In this document: positions 2,974-7,249 of the stretch, piece by piece | Layout: every line of letters begins with the position of its first letter | Position numbering within the stretch: position 1 is the first letter of the stretch | Assembly (NCBI RefSeq): GCF_002854065.1 | Contig: NZ_CP024147.1 | Source of the DNA: Escherichia coli | GTDB taxonomy: Bacteria; Pseudomonadota; Gammaproteobacteria; Enterobacterales; Enterobacteriaceae | DNA: 64,000 nucleotides | Reading direction: 5' to 3' (one strand) | Translations under genes and position numbers: made by a program | The notes under the pieces: generated by a model | Told to the model about the DNA's origin: nothing | The model's database searches: none | The model's input: only the letters and a program-made list of their open reading frames with translations

Positions 2974-3043
2974 AGGTGTGCTCCTGGCTCGAAAATGAAA
3001 CCGTAACAGTGTAATAACAATGTGACGCAGAGCACAAATTATA

Positions 3044-3057
3044 TTTCGAATGAAAGT
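3044..3057. promoter_or_regulatory. 14-bp conserved motif copy 2 (TTTCGAATGAAAGT) upstream of ybiV
   Basis: Exact 14-mer shared with 6492..6505 and reverse-complement of 2022..2035. Confidence 0.45.
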
Positions 3058-3118
3058 GAGAGTGAAATTGATGGTGTGAATGATTTAGCCCGGCGACGTC
3101 TCCGCCGGGCTGAGGGGA

Positions 3119-5551
3119 TTACAGCATATGTTCGGTACGGGCGATGATATCGTCCTGAGCGTCTGGAGAGAGCGCGGTGAAGAAGGCGGAATAACCCGCG
3201 ACACGCACTACCAGATCGCGATACTGATCGGGATGTTTTTTCGCATCCAGCAGCGTTTCGCGGGAAACGATGTTGTACTGAATATGCCAGCCTTTATGCA
3301 CCTCGAAGAAGGTGCGCAGCAGGATCATCAGTTTCTGCTTGTCAGATTCGTTCTCCAGTGTGGCTGGATTCAGTTTCTGGTTGAGCAACACGCCGCCGAG
3401 AATCGCTGCCGTAGGCAGTTTACCCACCGAGCCAATGACCGCAGTAGGGCCAAGATGATCAGTACCGGAAGCCGGGCTTGCGCCTTCTGCCAGCGGGGTA
3501 TGCGCTTTACGTCCGTCCGGCGTTGCCATAGTCTGCGCGCCAAACGGTACGTTAGCGGAGATAGACGACGTACCCGCGTAATAGTTGCCGCCAACCGGAC
3601 CACGACCGTAGCGTGGGTTATGGTACTGTTTCAGTTCGTCGATATAGGTCTGATAAGCGCGAGCCAGCAGCGTATCGACAGTATCATCGTCGTTGCCGTA
3701 CTTCGGCGCACCGTTAATCAGCCGCTGACGCAGCTGCTCGTGAGTCAGGCCGTCGAAGTCATCTGCCAGTGCGGCAGCAAGCTGTTGCTGACCAATCGCG
3801 CCCTGTTCAAATACCAGTTTCTTCACGGCCGCCAGGCTGTTGCCGAGGTTGGCAATGCCAACCTGCAGGCCAGAAACCCAGTCATATTTCGCGCCGCCTT
3901 GCTTGATGCTTTTCGCTCGCTCAATACAGTCATCCACCAGCGCCGAGCAGAGAATATCGTGCACGTTCTCTTCCAGCATGGTGTCGACGACATATTCGAT
4001 TTCGATTGATTTACGCGTGTAGTAACGGATTTGCGTATCCCACGCGTCCATCACTTCATCGAAGTTGTTGAAGTTACCTGCCGACAACGCTTTTTCTTGT
4101 GGCAGGAACACTTTGCCGCTGGTGGCATCACGCCCGCCTTCCAGCGCCGCCAGCATCACGCGGGCGAAGTTGATAAAGCTCATGCCGGTACAGCGATAGC
4201 CCCATTTGCCACCGACGGCGGTTTCTATACAACCAATCGCTGCGTAGTCGTAAGCGTCCTGCGGTTCAATACCGAGTTTAATAAATTCCGGGATCACGAT
4301 TTCGTCGTTGTTGAACGCCGGCATCCCGAAGCCGCAGCGGATCACCTGCACACAGGCGTCGAGGAAATCGTTGCTCATTCCCGCGTGGTAGCGCACGCTG
4401 AGGTTAGGCTGAGTCGAACGCAGACGGCCGCAGGACTCAAGGATCGCGTAAGAGAGGGGATTCACCGCGTCCATTGGTTGACCATCAACCAGATTTTGTC
4501 CGCCAATGGTGACATTCTGATACAGAGGACTTCCCGCAGAGGCTTTCGAGTGCGAGCCGGAGCGGATTTTGTTCACTTCCAGCAATTTCAACCAGCAGCT
4601 ATGCAGCAATTCGATGGCGTGTTCGCGATCCAGCGTCTGTTTCAGTTCAACATCACGACGATAGTACGGGTAGAGATACTGGTCCATACGACCAAACGAT
4701 ACCGAGTGACCGTTAGATTCGATCTGCAATATCAACTGGATGAAGTAACACAGTTGCAGCGCCTGCCAGAAAGTCTGCGGCGGCTGGTGGGCGATGAGAT
4801 CGCAGTTTTCTGCTATCGCCAGCAGTTCATCGCGACGGCTTTCGCGGGTTTCGGTCGCGGCCATTTCACGCGCCAGGGCAGCGAAACGTTCAATATGTTC
4901 ACTGACTGCCACCAGCACGATATCAATCGCTTTCAGGAATTGCTCACCGTGTAAATCTTCCAGCACCGTCAGGTTGATGCGCGAGCGACGTTCCGCTACT
5001 TTCTCGCGCAGACCATCAAGCCCTTTTTCCAGCAGCAGCGGGAAATTGACCGCCAGGTGCGCATCGCCGGAGGTCATATTGCCTTCCGCTTTAATGATGC
5101 CGGTCGCCAGCAGACCTTTTTGCTCATCGGTAAACATGCCGTAGCAGCGATCCTGTACGGTCTGACCGCGCCACCACGGGCACACTTCATGCAGAACGCG
5201 TTTGTTCTCTTCGCTCACCGCAAAGCCAGCACCGGGACGATCTGCCAGATCATCAATCTCTTTTTCGATCCACGAGACGGTATATTCCGGGAAGATCGGC
5301 GCGGCGCGAACTTCGCTTGCCTGGTTGCCAATGATCAACTCATCGTGTTTGATCCAGATGGTGCGATTCGCCAGGTGATGTGCCAGCGCCAGCGCGCGTC
5401 GTACCGGGATCGGCTTATCGAGATGTTGTTGATACATCTCGGTATAGTGCTGCGCGCGCTCGGTACAAACCGGCGGTTTCACAATATGCACCAGCGCATT
5501 TTTGTGCGCTTTAATGCGGTCGCTGAGCGTGTCCAGTTTCAGTGTGGTCAT
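3119..5551 (-). CDS. ybiW: Glycyl-radical enzyme (pyruvate formate-lyase-like), PflF/YbiW
   Basis: 810 aa ORF with C-terminal glycyl radical motif RVAGYSA. Confidence 0.9.
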   Translation of the reverse strand: MTTLKLDTLSDRIKAHKNALVHIVKPPVCTERAQHYTEMYQQHLDKPIPVRRALALAHHLANRTIWIKHDELIIGNQASEVRAAPIFPEYTVSWIEKEIDDLADRPGAGFAVSEENKRVLHEVCPWWRGQTVQDRCYGMFTDEQKGLLATGIIKAEGNMTSGDAHLAVNFPLLLEKGLDGLREKVAERRSRINLTVLEDLHGEQFLKAIDIVLVAVSEHIERFAALAREMAATETRESRRDELLAIAENCDLIAHQPPQTFWQALQLCYFIQLILQIESNGHSVSFGRMDQYLYPYYRRDVELKQTLDREHAIELLHSCWLKLLEVNKIRSGSHSKASAGSPLYQNVTIGGQNLVDGQPMDAVNPLSYAILESCGRLRSTQPNLSVRYHAGMSNDFLDACVQVIRCGFGMPAFNNDEIVIPEFIKLGIEPQDAYDYAAIGCIETAVGGKWGYRCTGMSFINFARVMLAALEGGRDATSGKVFLPQEKALSAGNFNNFDEVMDAWDTQIRYYTRKSIEIEYVVDTMLEENVHDILCSALVDDCIERAKSIKQGGAKYDWVSGLQVGIANLGNSLAAVKKLVFEQGAIGQQQLAAALADDFDGLTHEQLRQRLINGAPKYGNDDDTVDTLLARAYQTYIDELKQYHNPRYGRGPVGGNYYAGTSSISANVPFGAQTMATPDGRKAHTPLAEGASPASGTDHLGPTAVIGSVGKLPTAAILGGVLLNQKLNPATLENESDKQKLMILLRTFFEVHKGWHIQYNIVSRETLLDAKKHPDQYRDLVVRVAGYSAFFTALSPDAQDDIIARTEHML

Positions 5552-5556
5552 GGTTG

Positions 5557-6456
5557 TTATCCTCGTAAGGTCGCGGTTAACCCTTTCTGGCAGGCATACT
5601 GCTGGGCAAAGTCGAGCAGTTCTGGCGCATCAAGCGGTTTTTCCGGGGCGTCATAGGGCAGATTAAGTAAGTGATATTTGTTGATGCCTAGCGTGTGGTA
5701 GGGCAGGAAATGAATTTCGCCAACGTGCAGCTCGTCGGCGGCAAAATCGGTAATGGCTTTTACAGAGGTTTCGTCGGCATTAAAGCCCTGAATCAGCGGC
5801 ACGCGGATAATGATTTTTTTGCCCGCTGAGGCGAGTTTTTTCAGGTTATCCAGCACTCTGGCGGCGTTACCGTCGGTCCACTGTTTAAACGGCGCGTCGG
5901 CAACGTGTTTTAAATCGGCAAGAAACAGATCGATATAGGGCAGAGAAGGGGCGATATATTTCCACGGCACATGCAGACAGGTTTCTACCGCAGTATGAAT
6001 GCCAGCCTCGTGGCTGGCTTGCAGTAGCGCCATCGCCATTTCCGGCTGCATAAACGGTTCACCGCCAGAAAGCGTTAAGCCGCCGCCGCTGCGATCGTAA
6101 AACGGTTTATCGCGCAGAACGGTCGCCATGATCTCCTCAACGCTTTTCACTTCCCCACACACGGTTAACGCCTGTGTCGGGCAGCAGTCGGTTAACGCCG
6201 TCAGATGCTCCGGGGTTAACTTTTCCCGATGAATAAGCAAACCATTCAACGCACGCTCAATCACGTCCGGCGCGGCCTTAGCGCACAGCTCGCAGCCTTC
6301 CAGACACAGTCGTGCGTCATACAACAGATCCTGCGTGCGGGCGCGGCTTTCCGGGTTCTGACACCAGCGGCAGCCCAGCGAACAGCCTTTAAGAAATACG
6401 ACCGTGCGGATACCGGGGCCATCATGGGTCGAGTAGCGCTGAATATTGAAAATCAT
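5557..6456 (-). CDS. ybiY: Glycyl-radical enzyme activating protein (radical SAM), PflE/YbiY
   Basis: CxxxCxxC-type cluster region [14 protein letters not shown]; start set at ATG 6456 (MIFNIQ) with GAGAGG SD rather than the ORF-track start 6483. Confidence 0.8.
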
Positions 6457-6491
6457 AGTTGCCTCTCTGTTTCGTTCAAGCATTAAAATAC

Positions 6492-6505
6492 TTTCGAATG
6501 AAAGT
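6492..6505. promoter_or_regulatory. 14-bp conserved motif copy 3 (TTTCGAATGAAAGT) in ybiY/fsaA divergent region
   Basis: Exact 14-mer identical to copy 2. Confidence 0.45.
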
Positions 6506-6509
6506 TAGA

Positions 6510-6523
6510 TTGATGTGCGTCAA
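6510..6523. promoter_or_regulatory. FNR-like box TTGATgtgcGTCAA
   Basis: 9/10 match to FNR consensus TTGAT-N4-ATCAA; centre about 60 bp upstream of the ybiY ATG at 6456. Confidence 0.4.
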
Positions 6524-6586
6524 CTGTTCAGAGAGTTTTCCCGTGATAGTCTACATTCAGACAAAAAGTACATTTTGAGGATGGTT

Positions 6587-7249
6587 ATGGAACTGTATCT
6601 GGATACTTCAGACGTTGTTGCGGTGAAGGCGCTGTCACGTATTTTTCCGCTGGCGGGTGTGACTACTAACCCAAGCATTATCGCCGCGGGTAAAAAACCG
6701 CTGGAGGTTGTGCTTCCGGAACTTCATGAAGCGATGGGCGGTCAGGGGCGTCTGTTTGCCCAGGTAATGGCTACCACTGCTGAAGGGATGGTGAATGACG
6801 CGCTTAAGCTGCGTTCTATTATTGCGGATATCGTGGTGAAAGTTCCGGTGACCGCCGAGGGGCTGGCAGCGATTAAGATGTTAAAAGCGGAAGGGATTCC
6901 GACGCTGGGAACCGCGGTATATGGCGCGGCACAAGGGCTGCTGTCGGCGCTGGCAGGTGCGGAATATGTTGCGCCTTACGTTAATCGTATTGATGCTCAG
7001 GGCGGTAGCGGCATTCAGACTGTGACCGACTTACACCAGTTATTGAAAATGCATGCGCCGCAGGCGAAAGTGCTGGCAGCAAGTTTCAAAACCCCGCGTC
7101 AGGCGCTGGACTGCTTACTGGCAGGATGTGAATCAATTACTCTGCCGCTGGATGTCGCACAACAGATGATTAGCTATCCGGCGGTTGATGCCGCTGTGGC
7201 GAAGTTTGAGCAGGACTGGCAGGGAGCGTTTGGCAGAACGTCGATTTAA
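6587..7249 (+). CDS. fsaA: Fructose-6-phosphate aldolase 1
   Basis: ATG at 6587 ([10 protein letters not shown]) with GAGG SD; transaldolase-like fold protein of 220 aa; ORF track extends further upstream. Confidence 0.9.

Follow-up and report, generated by a model that had tools for sequence, protein, structure and literature searches.

Class II FNR-dependent promoters of Escherichia coli include narG, dmsA, nirB and pflB P6. FNR is inactive in air, and its sites carry a T in the core TTGA where CRP sites carry the G of GTGA. Several glycyl-radical enzyme genes are under FNR control, among them pflB-pflA, nrdDG and grcA/yfiD. At glpACB, GlpR, a repressor of the DeoR family, is combined with global regulators.

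Here we describe an FNR box upstream of another glycyl-radical enzyme operon, ybiY-ybiW, in a window of 64,000 nucleotides (the whole stretch of E. coli chromosome that was analysed). We consider it likely that the ybiY-ybiW promoter uses the box as its class II activator site and that the action of the box is gated by the repressor YciT, with FNR activation deduced from occupancy, geometry and expression together. The sequence is already in the literature as an FNR-bound motif with no assigned function. We add its conservation in 81 sequences, the geometry of palindrome and -10 element, the predicted placement at -41.5, and the retention of the box in 18 species in which fsaA is not the neighbour.

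The box, the palindrome and the predicted ybiY promoter

The box TTGATgtgcGTCAA occupies positions 6510-6523 of the window (plus strand; centre 6516.5) and reads TTGACgcacATCAA on the ybiY strand. It lies in the 130-bp intergenic region between two genes whose divergent arrangement the initial annotation had noted. The first of these, ybiY (5557-6456, minus strand; ATG at 6456-6454), encodes a glycyl-radical enzyme activase and is the first gene of ybiY-ybiW. It is followed by ybiW (3119-5551, minus strand), which encodes the glycyl-radical enzyme, reported to cleave 1,5-anhydroglucitol-6-phosphate. On the other side is fsaA (6587-7249, plus strand; ATG at 6587), encoding fructose-6-phosphate aldolase 1. 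The RefSeq gene order is ybiT, ybiU, ybiV, ybiW and ybiY on one side and fsaA, moeB and moeA on the other. The 451 bp around the site are present in 5425 of 5426 complete E. coli genomes, and the 30 nt spanning the box are identical in 4409 of the 5426. A G+C-rich hairpin (gcccggcg gagac gtcgccgggc, 3086-3112) is found just past the ybiW stop and ahead of the ybiV promoter, and looks like a terminator or REP-like element that parts ybiYW from ybiV.

Re-reading the window gave the same count as the initial annotation for the match to TTGAT-N4-ATCAA: TTGATGTGCGTCAA agrees at nine of the ten specified positions, both the TTGA and the TCAA core are intact, and the sole mismatch is G for A at 6519. 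The centre of the box is 60.5 bp from the ybiY ATG, in line with the roughly 60 bp upstream of 6456 given there, and 70.5 bp from that of fsaA. By frequency alone the match is not significant. When up to one mismatch is allowed, the consensus is found five times in the 64 kb window against 2.9 expected, and the narrower pattern TTGAY-N4-RTCAA once against 0.31 expected, with at least one occurrence in 26 of 100 shuffles. The hcp-type FNR site given in the table of Myers et al. (2013) has no match in the window. A chance match, left standing by frequency, is excluded by conservation and the ChIP data; because of these and of its position, we take the box to be more than chance.

Four bp from the box is a 14-bp motif, TTTCGAATGAAAGT (6492-6505), which the initial annotation had correctly placed next to it. 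This motif is part of a 16-bp palindrome, ACTTTC-N4-GAAAGT (6490-6505), which is 95-100% conserved and is the probable operator of YciT. Further copies of the 14-bp motif are located at 3044-3057 and, reverse-complemented, at 2022-2035. The corresponding operator-type sequences cover 3042-3057 in the ybiV promoter and 2022-2037 just upstream of the ybiU start codon. We found no TTGA-N6-TCAA beside either of these copies in the window or in 31 orthologous ybiV promoters, and therefore the box is not part of the repressor's operator. Directly downstream of the copy ahead of ybiV is a CRP-type box, TGTGCtctgcgTCACA (3021-3036, minus strand), conserved as TGTG(C/G)-N6-TCAC(A/C) with a variable spacer across 31 orthologous loci. 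YciT may therefore have CRP as its partner at the ybiV promoter, in the way that it has FNR at the ybiY promoter.

To describe conservation, we took 80 YbiY orthologue loci from Enterobacteriaceae, one per species, together with the window (81 sequences), and aligned their upstream regions ungapped on the palindrome. The TTGA core is kept in 80 of the 81 sequences (about 1.9 bits per base) and the TCAA core in 80-81 (1.9-2.0 bits per base). At the first core position the T of FNR sites, rather than the G of CRP sites, is found in 80/81 sequences on the left and 81/81 on the right. At position 5 of the half-sites, C and T alternate on the left and A and G on the right. The four spacer bases take 24 different forms (0.3-1.0 bits), and the 8-nt flank upstream of the box holds 0.1-0.6 bits. 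Within Escherichia, differences in the box are confined to the spacer or to position 5. The gap between palindrome and box is a constant 4 bp (19 bp from centre to centre), and the offset of the box to the palindrome and to the hexamer TTTAAT is the same in 80 of 81 sequences. The single outlier (locus L068) still has a perfect TTGATttcaATCAA, shifted by a run of A. Thus the suggestion that the box and the 14-bp motif could act together gains support from their conserved association in 80 species. Box, palindrome and -10 element are also kept in 18 species without fsaA as neighbour, in which the sequence further upstream differs. The box is therefore assigned to the ybiY promoter.

The hexamer TTTAAT (6482-6487, minus strand) is the predicted -10 element of ybiY and is 95-100% conserved in the 81 sequences. 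It lies 22 nt from the box, with 29.5 nt between the centre of the box and its first base, and does not have the usual A at -11. Seven nt past the hexamer is an A (6475, minus strand) that is present in 81/81 sequences and is the predicted transcription start. Given the conserved TTTAAT and this invariant A, the centre of the box is predicted to lie at -41.5, and the palindrome would span -30 to -15. The class II distance proposed in the initial annotation is thus matched by a geometry fixed in 80 species, at least as judged from the predicted start. An alternative, overlapping -10 is TAATGC (6480-6485); if the real element is TAATnT, the box would be at about -43.5. We found no match to a -35 element in the ybiY promoter, where AATCTA lies 17 nt upstream of TTTAAT, and a simple sigma-70 scan found no promoter there. 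That scan did return TTGAAC-16-TATGAT (6479-6452), which was rejected because it extends over the ybiY start codon and lacks conservation as a unit.

Position 6480 is C in the window and in K-12 MG1655 and T in all 80 other species and in the other aligned Escherichia. If the -10 element is TAATnT (6485-6480), this C removes its conserved final T and could weaken the K-12 promoter; it could in that way contribute to the missing FNR effect in the K-12 studies described below. We also considered a longer ybiY ORF of 308 amino acids, which starts in the ORF list at an in-frame ATG at 6483 (6481-6483) that overlaps the predicted -10 element. Because this ATG reads ATA in several other Escherichia, the longer ORF was rejected, and the annotated 299-amino-acid start at 6456 is on comparative grounds the real one.

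FNR occupancy, YciT repression and expression of ybiYW

The initial annotation had named FNR ChIP-seq occupancy as a check, and published peaks do lie over the box. Myers et al. (2013) list a ChIP-seq peak “ybiY/fsaA” that was positive by MOSAiCS, NCIS and CisGenome (Table S5) and negative in their ChIP-chip data and in an earlier ChIP-chip study (PMC3688515). The predicted site under this peak is TTGATGTGCGTCAA at 862788, with a PatSer score of 14.54 and an ln p of -13.06 (Table S6; PMC3688515). This position corresponds to ATG+54 in NC_000913.2, an offset equal to that in the window. Adding 857,055 to a window position gives that in K-12 NC_000913.3, so that the predicted starts of ybiY (6475) and fsaA (near 6559) fall at 863,530 and near 863,614. 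In Table S9, ybiY is the estimated target, and neither a co-regulator nor a transcription start is given as known (PMC3688515). Federowicz et al. (2014) reported Fnr ChIP-chip regions at 862561-863006 and 862543-862976 under fermentative and nitrate conditions (PMC3974632). A full-text literature search for ybiY together with FNR gave no match; the data sit only in supplementary tables. In combination, these results leave little doubt that FNR binds the box.

ArcA regions were reported in the same study. One is strong, lies at ybiU (NC_000913.2 857915-858999, approximately 1637-2721 of the window) and has a value of 49.9, with repression; a weaker one over ybiY/fsaA was found with nitrate (862364-862943, approximately 6086-6665; 8.6), with fsaA marked as “activation” (PMC3974632). 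ArcA may thus also act on the ybiU-ybiY/fsaA cluster.

YciT, a member of the DeoR family, has ChIP-exo peaks at ybiY (S/N 45.4) and ybiV (24.0), and deletion of yciT raised ybiY by a log2 of 7.7, ybiU by 7.0 and ybiW by 3.5 (Gao et al., 2021; PMC8464067). In a Reg-Seq preprint, YciT was also pulled down on ybiY promoter bait, and the authors concluded that it represses (10.1101/2025.05.13.653802). We assign YciT to the 16-bp palindrome as its probable operator. The ChIP-exo peaks are displaced from the palindromes by 105-165 bp in the plus direction. One (6595-6622; 862873-862900 in NC_000913.2) is within the beginning of fsaA and the other (2177-2210; 858455-858488) within the 3′ end of ybiV, and no motif like the palindrome is evident in the former. 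A shift of about 100 bp in the YciT peaks was likewise noted by the Reg-Seq authors (10.1101/2025.05.13.653802). Two further conserved sequences, ACGAAA at the predicted ybiY start (6470-6475) and GAAAAC, on the ybiY strand, between the box and the fsaA -10 element (6534-6539), resemble the CGAAAG half of the palindrome and are roughly 22 and 44 bp from it. They could be auxiliary YciT half-sites.

Expression data bear on both regulators. In the Reg-Seq preprint, activity of the ybiYW promoter was confined to anaerobic growth, whether or not nitrate was supplied. An activator footprint was seen slightly upstream of the YciT site, and scanning for motifs yielded no candidate factor for it (10.1101/2025.05.13.653802). 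The lysates came from aerobic cells, and FNR is not named in the text (10.1101/2025.05.13.653802). The 19 bp between the centres of palindrome and box fit the footprints given there at “-5” and “around -20.” Being inactive in air, FNR would not be recoverable from aerobic lysates. We infer that the activator footprint is probably the FNR box.

Measurements of fnr dependence differ between organisms and methods. In Shigella flexneri M90T without oxygen, ybiY changed by a log2 of -2.49 in an fnr mutant relative to wild type by FRT-seq (adjusted p<0.05), an effect that was not significant in standard RNA-seq. In K-12 grown in glucose minimal medium, the peak is among those for which expression did not depend on fnr (Myers et al., 2013, Table S9), and ybiY is not in the list of aerobic versus anaerobic differences from that study (PMC3688515). 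Expression of ybiWY and fsaA was marked “N/D” in both conditions by Federowicz et al. (2014; PMC3974632). The expression checks proposed in the initial annotation gave split answers. Anaerobic activity was found with the promoter in Reg-Seq, whereas the K-12 comparison of aerobic and anaerobic cells does not list ybiY; dependence on fnr appeared in Shigella by FRT-seq but not in K-12 in glucose minimal medium. In the model set out below, YciT repression would account for the missing fnr effect in K-12 in glucose medium.

In shaken cultures of the yciT mutant, mean counts were 23.6 for ybiY, 142 for ybiW and 6488 for ybiU (PMC8464067). The ybiU promoter has no FNR box. Low counts for ybiY and ybiW are expected if the ybiY promoter, though derepressed, is without its activator in air.

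In the mechanism that we favour, [4Fe-4S]-FNR would dimerise without oxygen and bind TTGAC-N4-ATCAA, with its centre at about -41.5 relative to a start near 6475. There it would substitute for the missing -35 element and recruit RNA polymerase to the weak -10 hexamer TTTAAT. YciT would bind the palindrome, which separates the FNR site from the -10 element, and would block the promoter until a presumed sugar-phosphate signal removes it, so that transcription of ybiYW would need two inputs, the absence of oxygen and a substrate signal. The enzyme fits this logic. A review states that YbiW uses glycyl-radical chemistry to cleave 1,5-anhydroglucitol-6-phosphate, which yields 1-deoxyfructose-6-phosphate (Ma et al., 2024, JACS 146:26187, as cited in PMC12441222) and that this chemistry is strictly anaerobic (PMC12441222). 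Two-input control would suit an oxygen-labile glycyl-radical enzyme that degrades such a substrate.

Other explanations and the divergent fsaA promoter

FNR might bind at this site to no regulatory effect, as a silent or decoy site of the kind proposed for many ChIP peaks without an expression change. Two K-12 studies did find binding without an fnr-dependent change (PMC3688515, PMC3974632). We nevertheless think this unlikely, as both half-sites and the exact spacing to the -10 element are kept in 80 species while neighbouring bases drift. The strong derepression of ybiY on yciT deletion would also explain silence in glucose medium, and ybiY drops in the Shigella fnr mutant, with reporters active only anaerobically. 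The last two results also weigh against a repressing role, in which FNR would, for example, shut off fsaA or ybiY anaerobically. Some promoters are FNR-repressed, and no activation was measured in K-12 in the two studies. In this case, however, ybiY falls rather than rises in the Shigella fnr mutant, the footprint nearby behaves as an activator site in Reg-Seq, and the box takes the place of the -35 element in a promoter that has none. Repression by FNR is accordingly very unlikely.

It is harder still to credit that the box is no FNR element at all, given that published ChIP places FNR on it. The similarity between the ybiV and ybiY operators (repeat family D13) does run a few bases into the box, as would suit a box that belongs to that operator; we rejected this assignment because the YciT-type operators at ybiU and ybiV have no such box beside them. 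A CRP site is opposed by the conserved T at the first position of both cores and by FNR having been the ChIP target. Read as a -35 hexamer, TTGACG matches TTGACA at five of six positions, but it has no usable -10 element 16-18 bp downstream, and a conserved inverted repeat is not required of a -35 element.

The remaining alternative extends our preferred explanation and would not replace it. One FNR dimer could occupy a class II site common to both promoters, about -41.5 relative to the ybiY start and about -42.5 relative to that of fsaA. The box would then drive fsaA too, and the YbiW cleavage step and the FsaA aldolase step would be switched on together anaerobically. The 63 species with adjacent fsaA share, on the fsaA strand, a conserved cGTGnTAgnnT (6542-6552) and a conserved CA (6558-6559). 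This conservation points to a predicted extended -10 element (TGaTAGTCT, 6544-6552, plus strand). In the 63 species, the sequence between the box and this element varies in its bases but has no indels. Indels do fall further downstream, in the fsaA leader, and the box accordingly lies 58 to 70 nt from the fsaA ATG. A start predicted near 6559 would place the centre of the box at about -42.5. FsaA plausibly cleaves the YbiW product 1-deoxyfructose-6-phosphate, and fsaA expression changes in the yciT deletion (PMC8464067). Against a shared site, fsaA was “N/D” in both Fnr ChIP-chip conditions (PMC3974632), the fsaA transcription start is a prediction, one dimer is unlikely to serve two polymerases simultaneously, and the 18 species that keep the box without fsaA show that fsaA is not needed to explain it. 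We regard the shared site as a possibility worth keeping, if a doubtful one.

A fuller version seems to us slightly more doubtful. Here the FNR dimer, centred in an 84-bp back-to-back promoter pair, would activate both ybiYW and fsaA, and a YciT oligomer on the palindrome and the CGAAA-like half-sites would clamp the region. FNR would be the Reg-Seq activator, and the C at 6480 would help to explain the silence in K-12. If true, the region would work as a compact AND gate in both directions, with the absence of oxygen and a 1,5-anhydroglucitol signal as its inputs, for a recently described pathway of radical-mediated glycolysis.

Comparison with described promoters

For the preferred reading, in which the box is the FNR activator site of ybiYW, three results have not previously been combined: the function of ybiW (2024), the YciT repressor data (2021) and the anaerobic-only promoter activity (2025-26 preprint). 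With the deep conservation, they give a testable account of why a strong FNR site looks silent, in which anaerobiosis and release of YciT are both needed. If it is true, one “Category 5” FNR peak joins the functional regulon and the missing activator of the ybiYW promoter is named. This would be an incremental gain, limited to E. coli regulation and gut 1,5-anhydroglucitol metabolism.

Within the scheme of Myers et al. (2013), the site resembles Category 4 (feoABC and other Fur-repressed operons), which combines a strong-motif FNR peak and fnr-independent expression in the test medium with a second regulator that holds the promoter off (PMC3688515). It differs in that the masking regulator at ybiY would be YciT, a DeoR-family protein of the sugar-phosphate type, and not Fur. 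As YciT was then uncharacterised, the ybiY site was filed under “other or unknown regulators” (Table S9).

The logic may also be compared with that of the glp system, in which a DeoR-family repressor would similarly provide substrate specificity and a global regulator the physiological condition. Operator sequences and geometry differ between the two, and the likeness serves only as a lead.

With class II FNR promoters, the ybiY promoter shares the TTGAT-N4-ATCAA inverted repeat near -41.5 (from a start predicted here), a weak or absent -35 element, anaerobic activity and FNR ChIP occupancy. Unlike those, it has a repressor operator inserted between FNR site and -10 element, and its box may also face a second, divergent promoter. 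With pflB-pflA, nrdDG and grcA/yfiD it has in common an oxygen-labile radical enzyme whose transcription is tied to anaerobiosis, for ybiYW presumably also via FNR. Unlike these genes, ybiYW is proposed to require a substrate-specific signal as well.
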